The notes below the pieces were generated by a model. The model was not told the DNA's origin. It made no database searches and worked only from the letters and a program-made list of their open reading frames with translations. The position numbers and the translations under genes are program-made. Positions 2,705 through 9,167 of a stretch of 64,000 nucleotides of DNA are shown piece by piece (within the stretch, counting starts at the first letter, position 1; each line of letters starts with the position of its first letter). Source of the DNA: a virus (lineage: Duplodnaviria > Heunggongvirae > Uroviricota > Caudoviricetes); the IMG/VR virus record IMGVR_UViG_3300042891_002161. One strand, 5' to 3'.

Positions 2705-3535
2705 TTAAATATTCTTTGACTTAAAATAGTTTATAGCTATATCTAATTCAGTTTTATCTTTAATACCATGATATATCATTATATCAGAAGAATTTTCACA
2801 TTTCATATTTGAATTACCAAAGATGCCCATATTATAAGCATCACCAACAATGCTTTCATTTTCTTCAATATGTATTAAAGGCTCGGCTTGAATTGTATTA
2901 AGATAAACTCTATTTAGATTTTGTGTTATTCCTCTTTTCCAAAGAATAATGTTTAATGGTGTTTCATCTTTAAACGGGTAATATTTACGAACATCTTGTA
3001 AAAGATAATTATTGTCACATATAGATTCCCATTCTTTGAAAACATCTGAACACTTATCATTAAAACTAAAAACACAAGTATAAACATAGTTCATACTTCT
3101 TGAATTAACACCAAAGTAATTCATAAGAGGCTCTTCATTGCTAAAATCAATATACTCACCATTTTGGTCTTGACCGTTGCATAAAAATGGATAGTCCCAA
3201 TTACCATATGGAAATAAAGGAAAATCTAAATCATTATTAAGTCTTGATACAGTGAATCTTTTACCAATTAAAATATCTGTATCTACAAATAAAAATTGAC
3301 CACCAAATTTAGAGATAGCATCCAACATAATAGTTGGCTTATAAAACTCAAAAAATCTTTTATTATTATTCCTTTGATAAACTACCTTAGTTAGATTTGG
3401 ATAATCTAATGATGATTCAAACCCAATTGTATAGTATATCATTTGAACCTCATCTTTAACATTTAAAATAATAGATTCAATTAAAGCCTTTGCTTGATAT
3501 TCATAATTTGCGTCTGAAAAAAAAATTATATTCAT
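2705..3535 (-). CDS. putative glycosyltransferase (GT8 / nucleotide-diphospho-sugar transferase-like, DxD)
   Basis: The N-terminus MNIIFFSDANYEYQAKALIESI resembles the GT8 N-terminus. A candidate DxD motif sits in FLFVDTDILIG. Confidence 0.4.
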   Translation of the reverse strand: MNIIFFSDANYEYQAKALIESIILNVKDEVQMIYYTIGFESSLDYPNLTKVVYQRNNNKRFFEFYKPTIMLDAISKFGGQFLFVDTDILIGKRFTVSRLNNDLDFPLFPYGNWDYPFLCNGQDQNGEYIDFSNEEPLMNYFGVNSRSMNYVYTCVFSFNDKCSDVFKEWESICDNNYLLQDVRKYYPFKDETPLNIILWKRGITQNLNRVYLNTIQAEPLIHIEENESIVGDAYNMGIFGNSNMKCENSSDIMIYHGIKDKTELDIAINYFKSKNI

Positions 3536-3542
3536 GTTTTAT

Positions 3543-4160
3543 TTATTTTTTTACATACCAAGATCCTAACCATTCACTAGTTACTCTTAATTCATATCCA
3601 TTTTTTTCACAAAACTCATCTACTGCTGGATTAACACCAAAAACACCCATATAAGTACCATCAGTTCCCCATATAAATTTATCTTTATTATTATCAGAAT
3701 AGTTTGGATCATCATACCAATCAAGACCAAGATAATCATGACCACATATAAATCCACCTTTTTTAACTTTAGGATACCAAAGTTCTATATCCTGAACAAC
3801 ATAATCATAAGCGTGATTAGCATCAATATAAACAAAATCTAATGAATTATCATTAAACATATCAGCGGCTATTTCTGAAGTAGCTCTAACCATTATAGCT
3901 CTATCTTCAAAGCCTTTAATATTCTCCATAGCGTCAGTGTAAACGCCACCATCATATCTACCGTGATTGCTAGAATCATCATAGCCAGATTCTAGTGGTC
4001 TCCAAACGTCTACCATATATAAAGTACCTGACCAGTTGTTCATTATTTGATTTGAGAAGTTGCCTTTGAATGTACCAACCTCAACTCCTTTTCCTTTTGG
4101 AAATTCTTGACCAATATTTCTTATTAGTTCAACTCTTGTTATATTTTCTTTAATCATCAA
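3543..4160 (-). CDS. class I SAM-dependent methyltransferase (TylF/FkbM/MycF-like O-methyltransferase fold)
   Basis: Contains a G-x-G motif (GVEVGTFKG), LDFVYIDANHAYDYV and GGFICGHDY, typical of the Methyltransf_24 family. Confidence 0.6.
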   Translation of the reverse strand: MMIKENITRVELIRNIGQEFPKGKGVEVGTFKGNFSNQIMNNWSGTLYMVDVWRPLESGYDDSSNHGRYDGGVYTDAMENIKGFEDRAIMVRATSEIAADMFNDNSLDFVYIDANHAYDYVVQDIELWYPKVKKGGFICGHDYLGLDWYDDPNYSDNNKDKFIWGTDGTYMGVFGVNPAVDEFCEKNGYELRVTSEWLGSWYVKK

Positions 4161-4188
4161 TTATTATATTGATAAATTAAAGATAGGT

Positions 4189-4500
4189 TTAAATAATTAT
4201 ACCGTTTAATATATTTTCTGATAAAGAAGTAATAAATCTCTCAATTAATTCAATTTCCTCATCTAAATTTCCATCAGTTCTGAATTGTCTAAATGATCCA
4301 GTGTCTAAAAATCTCATAGTATATTCACCTCTATTTGGAAATATAGTAAAGCAGAATCTTGTTCTACCTGAATTAGAAGCTTGTGCCCAGATTCTTCTAT
4401 AGTCTGGGGACAATCTTTCCATTAATAAGTCTTGTAACAACATCAATGTTGTTTCAAATGATGTTCCTCTTCTTGCGTGATATGAATAAATTTCTTCCAT
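4189..4500 (-). CDS. hypothetical protein
   Basis: The ORF track extends it to 4596, across tRNA-Ser. A likely true start is MEEIYSYHARRG near 4500. Confidence 0.35.
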   Translation of the reverse strand: MEEIYSYHARRGTSFETTLMLLQDLLMERLSPDYRRIWAQASNSGRTRFCFTIFPNRGEYTMRFLDTGSFRQFRTDGNLDEEIELIERFITSLSENILNGIII

Positions 4501-4514
4501 AATTTTTAATTTTT

Positions 4515-4602
4515 GCGGAGAGTGAGGGATTCGAACCCTCGGTACCCTTTCAGGTACACACGCTTTCCAAGCGTGCTCCATAAACCACTCGGACAACTCT
4601 CC
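4515..4602 (-). tRNA. tRNA-Ser (anticodon GGA), type II
   Basis: Acceptor GGAGAGT/ACTCTCC. Anticodon arm CACGC-TTGGAAA-GCGTG. Long variable arm. T-arm GAGGGTTCGAATCCCTC. Discriminator G. CCA is not encoded. Confidence 0.8.
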
Positions 4603-4612
4603 AGTTATCTTT

Positions 4613-4699
4613 GCGGAGAGCAGAGTATTCGAAACTCACACATTTTATTGTGCCACTCGCTTAGCAGGCGGTGCTAGTACCCTGACTAGTTTACTCTCC
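4613..4699 (-). tRNA. type II tRNA, Ser-like (possible anticodon GCU; imperfect anticodon stem)
   Basis: Same GGAGAGT acceptor, GTTCGAATACTC T-arm and roughly 87-nt length. The candidate anticodon loop CTGCTAA has only a 3-bp stem in my fold, so it could be a pseudo-tRNA. Confidence 0.5.
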
Positions 4700-4704
4700 A
4701 TTAG

Positions 4705-4787
4705 CGGAAGAAGAGGGAATCGAACCCCCAAAGCCTTACGACCCAGCCGCTTTCAAGGCGGTGTCCTCGTCCATTCGGACTCCTTCC
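4705..4787 (-). tRNA. tRNA-Ser (anticodon UGA), type II
   Basis: Acceptor GGAAGGA/TTCTTCC. Anticodon loop CTTGAAA. T-arm GGGGGTTCGATTCCCTC. Discriminator G. Confidence 0.65.
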
Positions 4788-4792
4788 GGTTG

Positions 4793-4876
4793 CGGAGAGG
4801 TGAGGTATCGATCCCCATACCTTTCGGTACGACTAGTTTTCAAGACTAGCTTTAGCGCCAGCTAAATTACCTCTCC
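4793..4876 (-). tRNA. type II tRNA, Ser-like (anticodon loop CTTGAAA = UGA), with an unusual T-loop
   Basis: Acceptor GGAGAGG/CCTCTCC. Anticodon arm CTAGT-CTTGAAA-ACTAG. Discriminator G. The T-loop ATCGATA is non-canonical. The 5' half overlaps the HNH remnant frame. Confidence 0.55.
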
Positions 4877-5069
4877 TTTCATTAAAGTGATGTATTCTAT
4901 GACAATTTGAACATAAAACAATACACTTTTCTATTTCTTCTAATATCCTATCTTTGTTACAAGATTTTATAATATTTGATACTTCTGATTCTTTTTTACC
5001 AATATGATGAAAATCTAAAGCGGCTGGATGTGAAAATCCACATTCTTGGCATTTTAGAGAACTTTGAAA
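4833..5069 (-). pseudogene. HNH endonuclease domain remnant (no start codon; 3' end reads into a tRNA)
   Basis: The frame translates FQSSLKCQECGFSHPAALDFHHIGKKESEVSNIIKSCNKDRILEEIEKCIVLCSNCHRIHHFNERRGNLAGAK..., a full C-x2-C...HH...N...C-x2-C-H-x2-H HNH core. An in-frame TAA lies immediately upstream and there is no ATG. It lies between tRNA-Arg and the tRNA-Ser block. Confidence 0.55.
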
Positions 5070-5093
5070 TTAAAAATATGTTCGTATCACTTG

Positions 5094-5166
5094 TAGTCCC
5101 AGAAGGATTCGAACCTTCATTTTTGGTTTCGTAGACCAATGTCCTGTCCAGTTGAACGATGGAACC
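5094..5166 (-). tRNA. tRNA-Arg (anticodon ACG)
   Basis: Acceptor GGTTCCA/TGGGACT (with G-U pairs). Anticodon arm TTGGT-CTACGAA-ACCAA. T-arm GAAGGTTCGAATCCTTC. Discriminator A. Confidence 0.75.
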
Positions 5167-5170
5167 ATAT

Positions 5171-5215
5171 AAAAACAAAAAACCCTTCAAACTTGAGTTC
5201 GAAGGGTTTCTTTAA
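5171..5215. terminator. rho-independent, bidirectional-type hairpin
   Basis: A-run, then the inverted repeat ACCCTTCaaacttgagttcGAAGGGT, then TTTCTTT. It lies downstream of the minus-strand gene at 5370-5972. Confidence 0.6.
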
Positions 5216-5263
5216 TATCTTTTTTACTTGACTATTATGAACACGATCGAACCTCACTCATTT

Positions 5264-5291
5264 TTGACGAGCGACTTGACGATTTTGACGA
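5264..5291. promoter_or_regulatory. three direct TTGACGA repeats in the 5' region of the minus-strand gene cluster
   Basis: TTGACGA at 5264-5270, 5276-5282 and 5285-5291, within about 100 nt downstream of the stop of gene 5370-5972. Confidence 0.25.
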
Positions 5292-5369
5292 TGTGTAAAT
5301 AATTGTTTTCATAATCTTATTGTATATATTACAAATGTAATCTTTGTTTTTGTTATTTCCTAATTTTTT

Positions 5370-5972
5370 TTATACTAAATCTTCAGCATCAGCTGGAAGA
5401 GTTATTCTAACAAGTTGTCTTTTAACATCTTCTTCTAATGGTAAAGACTCGTGAATGAATGTTGAATTACCCCAATATAAAGTATTACTCTTTAAGTTGA
5501 AGTTTTCCATTTTAGAAAGATCTAAATGTGAACAATCTCCACCTTGGTTTGGTTGACCTTCATAATCACCATTCCAACCTTTACAAGCTTCATAAGAAGA
5601 AACAATTAACATTCCACCTTTTTCAGAACAATATTGTTCTTCGTGTTTATCTCTTGGTAAAAATCTACCATCTTCTCCAGTTAACCAGCCGCTTCCGCCG
5701 CCACCCCATCCAAATAGATAGTTTCCATCAGTATGTGGTCCACCTCTTCTATGAGATTCACCTTTACTAACAATTTTTTCATCAATTGTTAAATATGCTT
5801 TACCTGTTTTCTTAGGTGAGCAATCAACAATCTCTTTAAGAACAGATTCCCATCTTTCATAACCTATTGGTAAAGTAGGATTCTCCATATCGAATTCGTG
5901 CATATAAACTCTATCACCTCTGTATTCTGGAAGAGATATCGGTTTAATCATTTTTGATTTACTTTTTAACAT
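5370..5972 (-). CDS. hypothetical protein, possible 2OG-Fe(II) oxygenase-like fold
   Basis: Candidate HxD (GGPHTDGNY) and a distal His (NSTFIHESLP) about 95 residues apart. The assignment is weak. Confidence 0.3.
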   Translation of the reverse strand: MLKSKSKMIKPISLPEYRGDRVYMHEFDMENPTLPIGYERWESVLKEIVDCSPKKTGKAYLTIDEKIVSKGESHRRGGPHTDGNYLFGWGGGGSGWLTGEDGRFLPRDKHEEQYCSEKGGMLIVSSYEACKGWNGDYEGQPNQGGDCSHLDLSKMENFNLKSNTLYWGNSTFIHESLPLEEDVKRQLVRITLPADAEDLV

Positions 5973-5988
5973 AATGTTATTTAATTTT

Positions 5989-6171
5989 TTAGTAGTTATC
6001 GTAGAAGTAATCTTTAAGATCTTTTTCTCCGTAACCTTTTTCTCTTAGGACTTTATACATTTCATAAGATGATTTGTTCTTTTTATTAGTATCAATAAAA
6101 TCTTCAATTTCATCTTTTTTAGAAACTTTTTCGCCTTTTACCTTTTCATTAAATTTTTGTAAATGTTTCAT
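5989..6171 (-). CDS. small Lys/Glu-rich hypothetical protein
   Basis: 60-aa ORF with a TAATATATAC-type motif upstream on the minus strand. Confidence 0.4.
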   Translation of the reverse strand: MKHLQKFNEKVKGEKVSKKDEIEDFIDTNKKNKSSYEMYKVLREKGYGEKDLKDYFYDNY

Positions 6172-6221
6172 TTTTTAATCTTTGATTTTATGTATATATT
6201 AAAATCAATATTTATATTTTG

Positions 6222-6350
6222 TGGGGATGGTTGGATTCGAACCAACGACCTTATAATTTCAAAATATACGAAGTAACTCTCTCAATCAACACTCTTTACG
6301 AGGTAAAATTTCAAAAGAGATAGTTTTCTCTACCACTGAGCTACATCCCC
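6222..6350 (-). tRNA. tRNA-like gene with a ~55-nt insertion (intron-like or disrupted; isotype unresolved)
   Basis: The 5' end GGGGATGTAGCTCAGTGGTAGAG and the 3' end AGGTCGTTGGTTCGAATCCAACCATCCCCA are canonical. The middle holds about 55 extra nt with a duplicated TTTTGAAATT segment (candidate anticodon loop: GAA or UGA). Confidence 0.45.
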
Positions 6351-6413
6351 AAATGAATTTATTACGTTACTTGAAAAGTGCCAAGTCGATAAAATTCTAA
6401 ACGGTCTCATAAC

Positions 6414-6558
6414 TAGGGAGAGAGGCAGGGCTCGAACCTGCGACCACGGATTTAAAAGATCGAAGTAACTCTTAACATCACTACTAATATTGATAATCAA
6501 TATCAGAGAATCCTTGTCAGAGTAATTGCGTGCTCTACCAACTGAGCTACTCTCTCCA
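6414..6558 (-). tRNA. tRNA-like gene with a ~70-nt structured insertion (His-like G-1/C73 architecture; isotype unresolved)
   Basis: The 5' end G-GAGAGAG-TA-GCTCAGTTGGTAGAGC and the 3' end GTGGTCGCAGGTTCGAGCCCTGC-CTCTCTC-C are canonical. The central insertion contains nested perfect hairpins (ATATTGAT/ATCAATAT; ACTCT/AGAGT). Confidence 0.45.
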
Positions 6559-6567
6559 TATTATTTG

Positions 6568-6650
6568 TGATTCCGGTGGGACTCGAACCCACGGTGGACT
6601 TTCATCGACAGATTAAGAGTCTGTTGCAATCGCCGCTATGCGACGGAATC
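6568..6650 (-). tRNA. atypical tRNA: Lys-type anticodon loop (CUU) on a type II-like scaffold
   Basis: Acceptor GATTCCG/CGGAATC. Anticodon arm ACAGA-CTCTTAA-TCTGT. D-loop contains AGCGGC. About 15 nt lie between the anticodon stem and the T-stem. T-arm GTGGGTTCGAGTCCCAC. Discriminator A. Confidence 0.5.
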
Positions 6651-6657
6651 ATTTTTG

Positions 6658-6740
6658 TGCGTCTGGTGGGACTCGAACCCACGGTTGAAATTAATCGACT
6701 GGTTAAAAGCCAGCTGCTATAGCCACTAAGCGACAGACGC
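6658..6740 (-). tRNA. atypical tRNA: anticodon UUU on a type II-like scaffold (paralogue of 6568 and 6750)
   Basis: Acceptor GCGTCTG/CAGACGC. Anticodon arm GCTGG-CTTTTAA-CCAGT. A 15-nt variable region. Identical T-arm GTGGGTTCGAGTCCCAC. Discriminator A. Confidence 0.5.
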
Positions 6741-6749
6741 AATACTTAG

Positions 6750-6834
6750 TGATCCTGGTGGGACTCGAACCCACGGTTGAGAATTAACTCTACTGGTTAA
6801 AAGCCAGTTGCTATAGCCGCTAAGCGACAGGATC
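6750..6834 (-). tRNA. atypical tRNA: anticodon UUU on a type II-like scaffold
   Basis: Acceptor GATCCTG/CAGGATC. Anticodon arm ACTGG-CTTTTAA-CCAGT. Variable region AGAGTTAATTCTCAACC forms a GAG/CTC hairpin. Same T-arm as 6568 and 6658. Confidence 0.5.
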
Positions 6835-6847
6835 ATTTGTATTTTAG

Positions 6848-6920
6848 TGATCCCGGTGGGGTTTGAACCCACAACCTTCCGATTAAAAGTCGGAAGCTCC
6901 ACCAATTGAGCTACGGAATC
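6848..6920 (-). tRNA. tRNA-Lys (anticodon UUU), canonical type I
   Basis: GATTCCG-TA-GCTCAATTGGTGGAGC-T-TCCGA-CTTTTAA-TCGGA-AGGTT-GTGGGTTCAAACCCCAC-CGGGATC-A. Confidence 0.85.
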
Positions 6921-6934
6921 ATTGTCTTTTTGAG

Positions 6935-6960
6935 GGCAACGATCCGTATGAATCGTTGCC
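6935..6960. other. 9-bp stem hairpin in a tRNA spacer (possible processing or termination signal)
   Basis: GGCAACGAT-ccgtatga-ATCGTTGCC. Confidence 0.3.
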
Positions 6961-7007
6961 TAGCGTTTATATTTCAATTTTGTTTTCATTTCTTTTAATT
7001 TATTTTA

Positions 7008-7079
7008 GCACGCCATTGAGGAATTGAACCCCACCGTCGAGGTTTTGGAGACCTGACCGACACCTTGTCTGTATGACGT
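7008..7079 (-). tRNA. tRNA-Trp (anticodon CCA)
   Basis: Acceptor ACGTCAT/ATGGCGT. Anticodon arm AGGT-CTCCAAA-ACCT. T-arm TGGGGTTCAATTCCTCA. Discriminator G. Confidence 0.65.
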
Positions 7080-7091
7080 ATTTTATTTTAG

Positions 7092-7173
7092 CACAGGTAA
7101 AGAGACTCGAACTCTTAGCCACTCTTACGAATTACCGGGTTGGAGCCGGCTGGTCACACCAATGAGTACCTGT
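7092..7173 (-). tRNA. atypical tRNA with candidate anticodon loop CTCCAAC (CCA) and an extended (~17-nt) variable region
   Basis: Acceptor ACAGGTA/TACCTGT is perfect. Anticodon arm GCCGG-CTCCAAC-CCGGT. T-arm AAGAGTTCGAGTCTCTT. The identity is uncertain. Confidence 0.4.
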
Positions 7174-7179
7174 ATGTTG

Positions 7180-7251
7180 TGGAGACTGACGGAATCGAAC
7201 CGACCTCTTCCGGGCTTCAACCGGACGCTAAACCAACTTAGCTAAGTCTCC
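7180..7251 (-). tRNA. tRNA-Phe (anticodon GAA)
   Basis: Acceptor GGAGACT/AGTCTCC. Anticodon arm TCCGG-TTGAAGC-CCGGA. T-loop TTCGATT. Discriminator A. Confidence 0.75.
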
Positions 7252-7254
7252 TTT

Positions 7255-7331
7255 TGGGTGAATGACGGGTTACGATCCCGCTACCTCTGGTACCACAAAC
7301 CAGCGCTCTACCGATTGAGCTACATTCACCA
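7255..7331 (-). tRNA. tRNA-His (anticodon GUG) with encoded G-1 and 3' CCA
   Basis: G-GTGAATG-TA-GCTCAATCGGTAGAGC-G-CTGGT-TTGTGGT-ACCAG-AGGTA-GCGGGATCGTAACCCGT-CATTCAC-C-CA. Confidence 0.85.
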
Positions 7332-7484
7332 TAATACCCCACTTCATCAGATTACCGGACTGACTGCCATATGGGAGTGGGGGTCTCCTGTTTATCTCAG
7401 GACTCCGTGGAACCTCCCGGTAACGATCCGGGCTCCCTGGATTTTCAGTCCAGTGCTTTCACCTGATTAGCTTAGGTTCCAATT
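7332..7484 (-). ncRNA. unassigned GC-rich (about 50% GC) structured spacer between the two His tRNAs
   Basis: Local GC is far above the 28-30% background. Hairpins include CCCGG-atcgtta-CCGGG and TCCTG-agataaa-CAGGA, and a CTGATGA element is present. No tRNA cloverleaf could be drawn. Confidence 0.3.
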
Positions 7485-7572
7485 TGGGTGTCGTACGGGA
7501 TTTGAACCCGTCCCCTAACTTTCACAGAGTTAGATGCTCGTCCGAAGACTCACCGCTGACAATAACGACACC
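7485..7572 (-). tRNA. second tRNA-His-like gene (GUG) with a ~12-nt hairpin insertion in the D region
   Basis: G-GTGTCGT acceptor pairing with ACGACAC, C73 and CA. Anticodon arm TAACT-CTGTGAA-AGTTA. T-arm ACGGGTTCAAATCCCGT. An extra GTC-TTCG-GAC tetraloop hairpin sits in the D region. Confidence 0.5.
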
Positions 7573-7579
7573 ATATAAA

Positions 7580-7618
7580 ACAAAAAAGTCCGAACTTTTT
7601 TGAAGTTCGGACTTTTGA
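7580..7618. terminator. bidirectional rho-independent terminator
   Basis: Perfect 12-bp inverted repeat AAGTCCGAACTT/AAGTTCGGACTT, flanked by an A-run and a T-run. Confidence 0.65.
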
Positions 7619-7835
7619 AATATTGTTCTTTATATAAATAGACTTGTTACATCTTATTTGAGAGCAATACACTTTCAGTACCGAACTGGTTGCTAAACCA
7701 CTTATTCGATTTACTAAAATGTTTATGTGTATTATTTGTTCTCATTGTAATTATATATTAAAAAGTTTTTGTTCCTTTTGTTGTTTTTGTTCTTATTTTA
7801 TACAAATATAGATAAAAGTTTTAAATCTACCTAAT

Positions 7836-8177
7836 TTATTTTAAAATATTTTTTATTTTTTCATTTCTTCCTACCATTTTATAGACTGATACTGTCTTTG
7901 AACCAAATCTTTTTTTAGACTTACCAGAATACTGGTATTCTTCGTTTGGTTCCATTTTAACAGAAATATATCTAACACTTAGATATCCGTCTGTTGTCAA
8001 ATCGGATAGGTGATTTGATATAACTTTATCATCATAACCAAACCAATAATGGTCGTGTTTTGATTTTTTGATTTGTTTAATTAAAGATTCAGTTGTAAAT
8101 TCAACTTCTGTCTCTAAAAAATTTGCTCTTAGGTAATTAACAACATCGTGTTTTTCCCATTGCCATAATGATTTCAT
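7836..8177 (-). CDS. hypothetical protein
   Basis: 113-aa ORF with no recognisable motif. Confidence 0.5.
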   Translation of the reverse strand: MKSLWQWEKHDVVNYLRANFLETEVEFTTESLIKQIKKSKHDHYWFGYDDKVISNHLSDLTTDGYLSVRYISVKMEPNEEYQYSGKSKKRFGSKTVSVYKMVGRNEKIKNILK

Positions 8178-8315
8178 AATTTCCTTTTTTAATTTTTAAG
8201 GAAATTTCTAACGTGAATTTCAATAACGGCTCCACTGACTATTTACAGTTATCAGTTCTGTTTTGTTATACAAATATAAGATGGATTTTTTAATCCACCA
8301 AATTATTTTTAATTT

Positions 8316-8528
8316 TTATCCTCCGTAGGCAGAAGTTATATAACCACCCTTAACTCTAAAGTTAATTCTATTAGATTTAACTTCCATAGTAAGCATTTTA
8401 GATTGACCATCAACCTCAACAACTCTTACTTCAAATCCACCATCATTAGCATATTGTGTTGCTTCTTCTAATGATTTTCCTAAATATTCTCTTTCGGTAA
8501 TCATACCATTATCTCTTAAATAAGCCAT
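8316..8528 (-). CDS. hypothetical protein
   Basis: 70-aa ORF. Confidence 0.45.
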   Translation of the reverse strand: MAYLRDNGMITEREYLGKSLEEATQYANDGGFEVRVVEVDGQSKMLTMEVKSNRINFRVKGGYITSAYGG

Positions 8529-8627
8529 AATTTATTTTTCTTTTTATATAATAAAATTAGTAATTTGTTTTTTTATAAAATTGCAAACATGATTTTTAAT
8601 ATATACACTAAAATATAAAACTACAAA

Positions 8628-9167
8628 ATGGATTTAAATAATTATTTAAGAAAAGACTATGCTACCCCATCCACATATTATGGATATTCAAGTGACTCAA
8701 ATGCTGCTTCTACAGATTTTAATTGGTCTATTAGAAAGGTAACAACATCTGGTAATGTTGAAACTGTTACTTGGACTAATGGTGATCCTGGAAAACCATT
8801 TGCTAAATGGAATGATAGAGTTAACTCATTCGCAACACCAACTGGTTCATTAGGTCTTACATGTAGTAAAGGAACTCAAATAGGAAATAATGTACCATTA
8901 AATATCACTTGGAACCAATTATCTGGTGTTAATAGATATCAAGTAGTTGTTTCAAAAAATAGTATAGTTTACTCAGATTTGGGATCTCAAATTTATTATA
9001 ATCCAAACACAAATCAAATTACTAAAGAGATAGTAAATGATGGTATTTATATTTATAATTTTGCTGAGTCAACTAATGGTCTTTCACCAAGTAATATTTA
9101 CTCTATTACAGTAACAGCTGTTAATGTTGCTGGATCTTCAGCATCAACTGTTACTATTACTACTTAA
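8628..9167 (+). CDS. Ig/FN3-like beta-sandwich protein (possible capsid decoration or adhesin)
   Basis: C-terminal YSITVTAVNVAGSSASTVTITT, Thr/Ser-rich strands and a WTNGDPG motif. A TAATATATAC motif lies about 21 nt upstream. Confidence 0.45.
   Translation: MDLNNYLRKDYATPSTYYGYSSDSNAASTDFNWSIRKVTTSGNVETVTWTNGDPGKPFAKWNDRVNSFATPTGSLGLTCSKGTQIGNNVPLNITWNQLSGVNRYQVVVSKNSIVYSDLGSQIYYNPNTNQITKEIVNDGIYIYNFAESTNGLSPSNIYSITVTAVNVAGSSASTVTITT

Follow-up and report, generated by a model that had tools for sequence, protein, structure and literature searches.

SegB is a proven homing endonuclease encoded within the tRNA cluster of phage T4. It cuts the tRNA genes of SegB-less relatives, its inheritance is nearly 100% and it drags flanking tRNA genes along, and the gene is absent from close relatives (PMC2330249). 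It has been proposed that maturation of the downstream tRNA severs the stop codon of the SegB mRNA from its last sense codon, and the heg genes of phage T5 are also cited as homing endonucleases, the expression of which is possibly limited by processing of the tRNA transcript (PMC2330249). In phage Felix O1, three genes (ORF47, ORF45 and ORF44) are listed in the genome paper as HNH or homing-endonuclease homologues (PMC3185647). Furthermore, the T4 endonuclease I-TevIII has been termed defunct (PMC2790892).

Here, we describe a locus in the window, i.e., the whole 64,000-nt stretch of phage DNA that was analysed, in which a tRNA-Arg(ACG) and a tRNA-Ser(UGA) gene are separated by what are very probably the 3' 76 codons of a dead small endonuclease gene that formed a free-standing cassette between them. 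Within a clade of 0.6-Mb phages, this one site displays empty, filled, decaying and truncated states of a putative homing-endonuclease life cycle.

A startless HNH frame between two tRNA genes

The HNH frame, including its spacer codons, extends over 5069..4833 (minus strand) and comprises 78 codons (FQSSLKCQECGFSHPAALDFHHIGKKESEVSNIIKSCNKDRILEEIEKCIVLCSNCHRIHHFNERRGNLAGAKASLEN), with the closing TAG included in the coordinates. The first two codons (TTT CAA, encoding F and Q) belong to the spacer and not to the HNH gene, and homology sets in at the equivalent of Ser46. The HNH endonuclease pseudogene proper (4836..5065, minus strand) corresponds to residues 46-121 of the 121-aa orthologue P0001. 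It retains the whole CxxC...HH...CxNCH core, and the N-terminal zinc-finger/helix region is gone.

An earlier note on this DNA had described a complete HNH core without a start codon, a TAA directly upstream and a 3' end that runs for 14 codons into the 5' part of a tRNA, and each of these observations is borne out. The window copy matches all 16 columns that are invariant in an alignment of 66 family members (CxxC, H, LDFHH, E, KC and CxNCxR..H), and no ATG, GTG or TTG occurs in frame across 5069..4833. The TAA abutting the frame start (5072..5070, minus strand) is in place, though it is spacer-derived, and the last 14 codons (4877..4836) together with the stop overlap the tRNA-Ser(UGA) gene at 4876..4792. 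The closing TAG (4835..4833, minus strand) forms part of the anticodon stem of this tRNA, on its 3' strand. Because it has no in-frame start codon, the frame is missing from the ORF list. At a G+C content of 29.5%, an open frame of 78 codons has a chance probability of P ~6e-4, and 16 of 20,000 shuffles were open. The upstream neighbour is tRNA-Arg(ACG) at 5093..5166 (minus strand). We rejected both a non-standard genetic code and read-through at the upstream TAA, since a tRNA gene lies upstream and TAA ends 30 of the 32 long ORFs in the window. No further copy of the HNH gene, intact or not, was identified elsewhere in the 64,000-nt window.

A homology search of the translation, which the earlier note had proposed as a check, yields significant HNH matches. 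The fragment is matched by PHROG 2255 (E=4.6e-22) and PHROG 3106 (E=2.4e-20), both named 'HNH endonuclease', and a protein-collection search with the fragment recovered 209 homologues of 111-137 aa (best E=2e-42). Two CxxC pairs, which read CQEC and CSNC in the window, are invariant in all 66 family members, and the residues of the catalytic motif (LDFHH, the N of CSNCH, and HRIHH) occupy invariant or nearly invariant columns. By reference to the general HNH motif, the CxxC pairs are assigned to structural zinc, and LDFHH, the N and the distal His to catalytic roles. The Pfam HNH model (PF01844) scores 17.0 bits on the fragment (E=0.0065), which is under its cut-off of 21.4, and the eight full-length homologues that were run also fall under this cut-off (<=20.3 bits).

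The 132-aa homologue P0002 was modelled confidently by AlphaFold (pLDDT 95.3). The model has a beta-hairpin finger at its N terminus, then a long helix spanning residues 31-68, and at its C terminus a beta-beta-alpha module whose fold resembles that of solved HNH enzymes. The intact protein is predicted to consist of two modules, a CxxC...CxxC finger with a long helix, followed by a zinc-bound HNH (beta-beta-alpha-metal) nuclease. Foldseek against the PDB returned no significant match, and a sequence-profile search of the PDB yielded just a marginal match to the tail of McrA (E=0.034).

Truncation relative to intact copies

P0001 (121 aa) is the best protein match and is 95% identical along the entire fragment. 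It is encoded on L001, a 563-bp metagenome contig whose DNA is ~98% identical to the window. L001 and the window are identical across tRNA-Arg and the start of the spacer; then ~164 nt, approximately L001 positions 98-260, are missing from the window, and past this deletion the two differ at five positions in the HNH-homologous part. What is missing is the ATG with 44-45 codons and, ahead of them, a motif (TTTCGTAGTTTAATATATAAAA) that is conserved upstream of all intact copies and was also seen in L002, L004, L097 and L183. At the deletion junction (5065..5073, minus strand), the few bases present fit the alignment on both sides of the deletion, its ends are ambiguous by ~9 nt, and no clear case of microhomology was established there. 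As the remnant contains neither frameshifts nor internal stops, the deletion is recent. An IMG/VR search for the junction sequence returned no match, so that the deletion stands without independent confirmation.

The earlier note had also suggested a comparison with syntenic relatives, and this uncovered intact copies (L001, L097, L004 and L002). Syntenic versions of 129-136 aa are located between tRNA-Arg and class II tRNAs in L002/L003, L004-L009, L095 and L097; in L097, L004 and L002, copies of 132-136 aa lie between the same tRNA-Arg and tRNA-Ser genes as in the window. In a four-way alignment, L001 is without 69 nt (23 codons, in frame) that L097 and L004 have. Its N-terminal finger is altered with the loss of one zinc-ligand Cys (HSSCSIC to HSAGSLC), and the original HNH stop codon is gone as well. 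The copies form a graded series from 132-136 aa, via the 121-aa form with its loss of 23 codons, the Cys and the stop, to the startless copy in the window, with the order of decay events read from three sequences. The description of the endonuclease as 'decaying' in the earlier note is well supported by this series. The window copy lacks the start, the translation signals and the full domain set of a functional protein-coding gene, and was filed as a pseudogene because there is no in-frame start and the upstream motif and 44-45 codons are deleted. We conclude with good confidence that a free-standing HNH endonuclease gene has decayed here into a pseudogene.

Empty, filled and remnant states of the Arg/Ser junction

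Two complete huge phages, LR756502 (642 kb) and LR745206 (635 kb), share DNA with the window. Neither of them has the HNH gene, and no HNH remnants were found in their corresponding spacers. In LR745206 (L011), AAAT is what lies between tRNA-Arg and the unusual tRNA-Ser seen in the window; LR756502 has two copies of AAAT at the junction, one on each side of a 68-nt element whose termini are 11-bp inverted repeats. A search for the exact pattern of the tRNA-Ser core retrieved 85 loci from IMG/VR and JGI metagenomes, none of which carries an HNH gene upstream of tRNA-Ser (0/85); in ~27 of these loci, tRNA-Arg(ACG) is located 4-10 nt, mostly 4-5 nt, from tRNA-Ser.

The blastn homology of the window to five close relatives (L173, L115, L171, L175 and L180) stops at 5088|5087 and 4880|4879. 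These clean breakpoints identify the 208 nt at 4880..5087 (minus strand), which comprise the spacer and the remnant and are absent from all five relatives, as an insert. The flanks are collinear with those of empty-site relatives (95% identity downstream and 84-88% upstream) and the gene order is unchanged apart from the 208-nt insert, which leaves the suggestion of the earlier note that the endonuclease may have rearranged the cluster unsupported. The 208-nt segment is, as judged from these alignments, the leftover of an inserted endonuclease cassette.

The site is filled in L001, L004-L009 and L097, holds the remnant in the window, and is empty in L011, L173, L115, L171, L175, L180 and about 20 more. 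Sporadic presence and absence at one precise site with intact flanking genes is an expected feature of a free-standing homing endonuclease gene. On this precise presence/absence pattern, the intact gene was probably mobile by homing, and we refer to it as a candidate homing gene.

The adjoining tRNA-Ser and the lost stop codon

The downstream neighbour of the remnant is a tRNA-Ser(UGA) of an unusual type (4792..4876, minus strand), in which the D stem has 6 bp, the D loop has 4 nt and position 54 is A (A54). This tRNA at 4876..4792 was missed both by ARAGORN with default settings and by Rfam at E<=1, and is found by ARAGORN at a relaxed threshold only (-ps80). All five cloverleaf helices are maintained across at least 35 distinct 84-nt orthologues, with compensatory changes at the acceptor pairs 4-80, 5-79 and 6-78 and at the D-stem pair 13-24, so that this divergent tRNA-Ser(UGA) is real. 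L115, one of the empty-site relatives, has a tRNA-Ser identical in sequence to that of the window.

The position at which the HNH frame ends varies with this tRNA. In L097, the HNH stop is a TAA at tRNA-Ser positions 12-14, where the window has the codon TTA (4863..4865, minus strand), and in L004 it is a TAG at tRNA positions 13-15, in a different frame. In the window and in L001, the D-stem pair A13:T24 is replaced by its compensated variant T13:A24, which turns TAA into TTA, so that the HNH frame extends by 10 codons to the TAG in the anticodon stem. The 14 codons inside the tRNA are thus explained by a compensated D-stem change that removed the stop. The identity with the tRNA of L115 fits, but does not prove, that the cassette entered a genome whose tRNA offers no stop. 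The T13:A24 variant that is joined to the cassette in L001 and the window is also carried by empty-site relatives, an indirect hint at preferential transmission of the cassette in mixed infections together with its flanks.

Association of the HNH subfamily with tRNA clusters

The gene neighbourhoods of relatives were surveyed at 80 IMG/VR loci, 17 of which encode finger-bearing proteins and 63 proteins without the finger. In the finger-bearing branch, a tRNA lies within 150 nt in 15 of 17 loci, and in 10 of these the ORF runs 4-16 nt into the following tRNA at its 3' end. Where the finger is lacking, only 2 of 63 loci have a tRNA nearby. Members of the same family occur in tRNA clusters at unrelated sites and beside different tRNAs in Felix O1, in a crAss-like phage, in huge phages and in L183. 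All three HNH genes in the tRNA cluster of Felix O1 are homologues, with 41%, 33% and 33% identity of ORF47, ORF45 and ORF44 to P0002 in tblastn (E=5e-21, 7e-15 and 7e-9, respectively); ORF47 stops 1 nt short of tRNA-Thr, and ORF44 overlaps tRNA-Ile by 7 nt. By the evidence of these neighbourhoods, one HNH subfamily is specialised in tRNA clusters across unrelated phages.

As this subfamily often takes its stop codon from the downstream tRNA, the evolution of tRNA stems is coupled to the integrity of the endonuclease. The subfamily also bears on the shuffling of phage tRNA arrays. Furthermore, such loci are useful for annotation, because standard tools miss both these ORFs and the odd tRNAs that adjoin them.

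Putative leader-peptide attenuators of tRNA blocks

In the window and its relatives, a short ORF stands as a leader ahead of each tRNA block and is rich in the amino acids that the tRNAs of that block carry. The Arg/Ser block that contains the remnant is headed by a leader ORF of 25 codons (MKTIIYTSSKSSSRSSKMSEVRSCS; 5235..5312, minus strand) and a strong intrinsic terminator consisting of a hairpin and a T-run (5177..5212, minus strand), which ends ~10 nt before tRNA-Arg. The next tRNA block is headed by a second leader ORF (MRTNNTHKHFSKSNKWFSNQFGTESVLLSNKM; 7745..7647, minus strand), which is followed by a second terminator (7616..7584, minus strand) and is located upstream of His-like, Phe, His, Phe, Trp, Trp and four Lys tRNAs.

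The Ser/Arg leader is represented by 24 distinct versions, all of which are in frame and have 24, 25, 26 or 34 codons. TCG accounts for 28% of the Ser codons in these leaders versus 3.7% in the 32 long window ORFs, and CGC and CGA each account for 43% of the Arg codons versus 1.9% each in the same ORFs. The rare codons enriched in the leaders (TCG, CGC and CGA) are those read by the downstream Arg(ACG) and Ser(UGA) tRNAs. In addition, the leader sequence GGTTCGA (codons 20-22) is complementary to the 5' arm of the terminator and represents a candidate antiterminator. Leader and arm occur as covarying haplotypes (GGTTCGA/TCGAACT, GATTCGA/TCGAATC and AATCCGA/TCGGATT), and none of 5000 shuffles of partners among sequences matched the observed leader-arm pairing (0/5000). 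RNAalifold predicts the leader-arm helix with two doubly compensated pairs. As the MAFFT alignment of the attenuator mis-registers the terminator arms, pairing was examined in each sequence separately and in truncated nascent RNAs.

When all fetched loci were scanned, 49 distinct leaders belonging to at least 13 classes were identified, each of which mirrors its own tRNA block. These include YYYE.E upstream of Glu and Tyr tRNAs, PQIQDQDQP upstream of Gln, Pro and Asp tRNAs, FKFKKF upstream of two Lys tRNAs, and NLNMNLNNTLNMVVNTLCIR upstream of Asn, Ile, Arg, Thr, Cys, Met and Val tRNAs. Leader and terminator are complementary in most classes examined, on unrelated stems. Across 13 class representatives, the excess of matches between leader and block is 0.25 versus 0.002 +/- 0.044 in permuted sets, none of which reached this value (0/20,000).

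A leader, a terminator and an alternative pairing between them constitute the geometry of classical ribosome-mediated attenuation. Rfam has no family above threshold for the attenuator, and no comparable attenuation of tRNA genes was found in the literature that was searched. If real, the attenuators would, to our knowledge, be the first to place tRNA genes under the control of ribosomes that stall at codons read by those same tRNAs. Among promoter-like elements, the motif TAATATATAW is only weakly enriched in the window (8 matches versus 3.3 expected), and the sigma-70 scan was uninformative (6 found versus 9 expected); the motif upstream of intact cassettes is accordingly described here as conserved and not as a promoter. 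The comparative evidence makes it likely that the leader-peptide attenuators of tRNA blocks are real.

Such an attenuator would consist of a leader of 14-50 codons that contains codons of its own block's tRNAs, followed by a terminator whose 5' arm can pair with the leader end. When tRNAs are in short supply, either because the host pool is unsuited to the codon usage of the phage or because a defence system cleaves tRNAs, ribosomes would stall in the leader. A stalled ribosome would cause the terminator to fail and thereby yield more of exactly those tRNAs that are scarce. The HNH cassette is located just after the first tRNA of the Arg/Ser block, with its stop lent by the next tRNA, and its expression would thereby be tied to both the attenuator signal and tRNA processing. 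On balance, we favour the view that the remnant marks the invasion by a selfish endonuclease of an undescribed kind of operon, in which tRNA blocks would be transcribed by attenuator read-through only. If real, these attenuators would provide a direct feedback loop on tRNA supply in viruses, and this context, which is of larger value than the remnant itself, is probably the more important one.

Proposed origin and decay of the cassette

The intact gene is likely to have been a homing endonuclease in the manner of T4 SegB. The cassette would have occupied the 4-5-nt spacer between the tRNA-Arg(ACG) and tRNA-Ser(UGA) genes of a huge phage. During co-infection, the intact protein would introduce a cut or a nick close to the Arg|Ser junction of an allele without the cassette. 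Repair by recombination would then copy the cassette into this allele, as was shown for SegB of T4. On the line leading to L001 and the window, the cassette would have met a tRNA variant without an in-frame stop and would then have acquired the 10-residue tail, followed by the 23-codon internal deletion, the loss of the zinc-ligand Cys and finally the 5' deletion. A decay phase is part of the life cycle of homing endonuclease genes, and the whole course would represent the usual cycle of invasion, fixation and decay of selfish endonuclease genes. The remnant would now be a transcribed spacer inside a polycistronic tRNA precursor from which no protein is made, and it most likely does nothing beyond this spacer role. 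It is the ordinary fate of such genes and of a kind that is already known.

The intact gene could alternatively be an accessory nuclease, not selfish but useful at tRNA clusters (acting in the recombination or amplification of tRNA loci, or on host DNA), that was lost in the window. Its constant position and 60-72% protein identity across L002-L009, L095 and L097 would fit long vertical inheritance, and three paralogues are retained in the Felix O1 tRNA cluster. In addition, a 2026 report (PMC13096335) credits SegB with promoting the amplification of anti-defence tRNA loci. We nevertheless consider such a role unlikely, as the gene is absent from most relatives with the same tRNA pair and decays stepwise in L001 and the window, which is typical of dispensable selfish genes. 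With regard to the truncation itself, the junction is present in one sequence only and its absence from IMG/VR would be compatible with an assembly or sequencing artefact in a genome that really encodes the 121-aa gene. This is quite improbable given a clean deletion with collinear flanks, a region that is unique within the window, and abundant natural variation at the site (empty, filled and with other inserts).

Even less probable is continued translation of the fragment as a minimal 78-residue HNH protein, via a non-canonical start or coupling. The full catalytic core and the open frame are preserved, but the frame is still open because the deletion is so recent, as reflected in the ~98% identity to L001. 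None of the three usual start codons is in frame, and the TAA and then a tRNA gene lie directly upstream, which leaves no upstream ORF for coupling. Moreover, the deletion removed the conserved upstream motif along with the N-terminal finger and the long helix that every finger-bearing homologue has. Homing endonucleases are often intron-encoded and the frame does enter a tRNA, yet the likelihood that the ORF is part of an intron or intein in a tRNA or protein gene is close to nil. No intron family was detected by Rfam in 3500-9000, and the tRNAs on both sides are complete and are joined by a 4-5-nt spacer in empty-site relatives; a group I intron or an intein was ruled out on the absence of an Rfam intron family and the location of the ORF between two complete tRNA genes.

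Comparison with known endonucleases of phage tRNA clusters

Viewed as a dead, free-standing HNH endonuclease gene, the locus shares with T4 SegB the position of a free-standing endonuclease gene in a phage tRNA cluster, with its end abutting the downstream tRNA. SegB is a GIY-YIG enzyme, is experimentally proven and is intact in T4, whereas the window gene is of the HNH type and truncated. The earlier note had pointed to homing endonucleases in the tRNA regions of T4 and T5, which is correct for T4 SegB (PMC2330249) and for T5 hegA, hegC and hegD, all three of which lie in the T5 tRNA region. The T5 genes (F-TflI, II and IV) are HNH-type genes wedged among tRNAs, as here, and hegC and hegD overlap the 5' end of the following tRNA by 14 and 23 nt, respectively. 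The T5 heg proteins are larger (193-227 aa as annotated), however, and hegC and hegD carry IPR010902 besides the HNH domain; BLAST of the T5 heg proteins against the window family revealed no similarity except a weak match in the core (E ~0.1).

Like I-TevIII, the window gene is an endonuclease gene caught in the decay phase. In contrast to the intron-encoded I-TevIII, it is a free-standing gene, and what it has lost is the 5' part, not the 3' part. Felix O1 ORF47, ORF45 and ORF44 (Felix01p093, p088 and p085) belong to the same family as the remnant and have the same finger and HNH architecture. Felix O1 is an Enterobacteria myovirus of 86 kb and represents another phage group and host, and its HNH copies, unlike the one in the window, are intact.

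Further inserts at the Arg|Ser junction and in the tRNA arrays

The junction between tRNA-Arg(ACG) and tRNA-Ser(UGA), which holds the start-less HNH endonuclease remnant in the window, carries other inserts in related phages. The 642-kb phage genome LR756502.1 (6142-6305) contains a 68-nt element at the same junction, bounded by terminal inverted repeats of 11 bp (GAATATCACAG...CTGTGATATTC) and with AAAT on either side; it resembles a small insertion that has duplicated its target site. Another, different short remnant lies about 110 nt upstream of tRNA-Ser at the Arg|Ser junction of Ga0255102_1000906. Its C-terminal end reads ...GYVKTGKKYGVSDNCIRKWLKKYMEE* with the stop located within the 5' end of the tRNA, and this tail is helix-turn-helix-like, a type found in homing endonucleases.

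An intact copy of the HNH gene (protein P0004) is encoded in the related locus L095 (2989-3390), where an aminoacyl-tRNA synthetase-like gene directly follows on the 3' side in place of the tRNA. The final codons of this copy, GAA AGA AGA AAT TAG, are similar to the first 12-14 nt of tRNA-Ser, as if this tRNA-Ser-like 3' end had been brought along by the HNH cassette. Furthermore, three related loci, L005, L006 and L009 (1797-2777 or equivalent), encode a 326-aa DUF559/MTES_1575 protein (Vsr-like endonuclease) between tRNA-Lys and tRNA-Arg, which is missing from locus L004 and adds another nuclease of mobile appearance to this array. Genes for an RNA ligase (PF09414) and class II aminoacyl-tRNA synthetase-like proteins are also found near the tRNA arrays of relatives. 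In the window, a conserved 200-aa ORF with unassigned function (5370-5972, minus strand) is located just upstream of the Arg/Ser unit and is shared with L002, L004 and L097.

Unusual tRNAs

Several tRNA genes of the window have unusual structures or lengths (4792-4876, 6567-6834, 7091-7173 and 7487-7572, all on the minus strand). The tRNA-Ser(UGA) at 4792-4876 contains a 6-bp D stem and is undetected by default ARAGORN and Rfam. Among the tRNA-Lys genes, three have a length of 84-86 nt, and one tRNA-Trp is 83 nt long; Lys and Trp tRNAs of 87-91 nt occur in relatives. An 86-nt tRNA-His-like gene scores solely as a weak 'tRNA-Sec'.

Candidate leader-peptide attenuators of tRNA blocks

The tRNA-Arg/Ser block is headed by a putative leader-peptide attenuator (5177-5312, minus strand). 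It contains a 25-codon ORF (MKTIIYTSSKSSSRSSKMSEVRSCS) with abundant TCG, CGC and CGA codons, which are rare and are read by the tRNAs downstream. The leader nucleotides GGTTCGA covary with the 5' arm of the terminator located 3' of the leader, and the 24 distinct versions of this leader among relatives are all in-frame.

A second leader and terminator unit of the same kind was identified at 7584-7745 (minus strand). A terminator lies 3' of its leader (MRTNNTHKHFSKSNKWFSNQFGTESVLLSNKM), which carries codons for His, Lys, Phe and Trp, and the tRNAs downstream are His-like, Phe, His, Phe, Trp, Trp and four Lys. The terminator arm CCGAACT is complementary to AGTTCGG in the leader, and the corresponding pair reads GAACTTGG/CCAAGTTC in the related loci L124 and L140.

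At least 13 classes of these candidate leaders occur in relatives, and every class shows enrichment for the amino acids that the tRNAs of the block behind it carry, among them YYYE.E ahead of Glu and Tyr tRNAs, PQIQDQDQP ahead of Gln, Pro and Asp tRNAs and FKFKKF ahead of Lys tRNAs. Examples start at 6106 in L140, 11428 in L139, 1433 in L123 and 1892 in L105 (all minus strand), with others in L138 (8287) and L095 (4139). In a permutation test, none of 20,000 permutations gave a leader-to-block amino-acid match as high as observed.

Upstream of the Arg/Ser leader, a TAnnTTTG motif (TACATTTG) followed by TAATATATA is present at about 5318-5335 (minus strand) and at equivalent positions in relatives, in many of which this stretch lies 10-25 nt 5' of the leader ATG. 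A scan of the window for TAATATATAW revealed weak enrichment only. The TAnnTTTG motif is similar to the -7 promoter element of Bacteroidota, a likeness that hints at the host.
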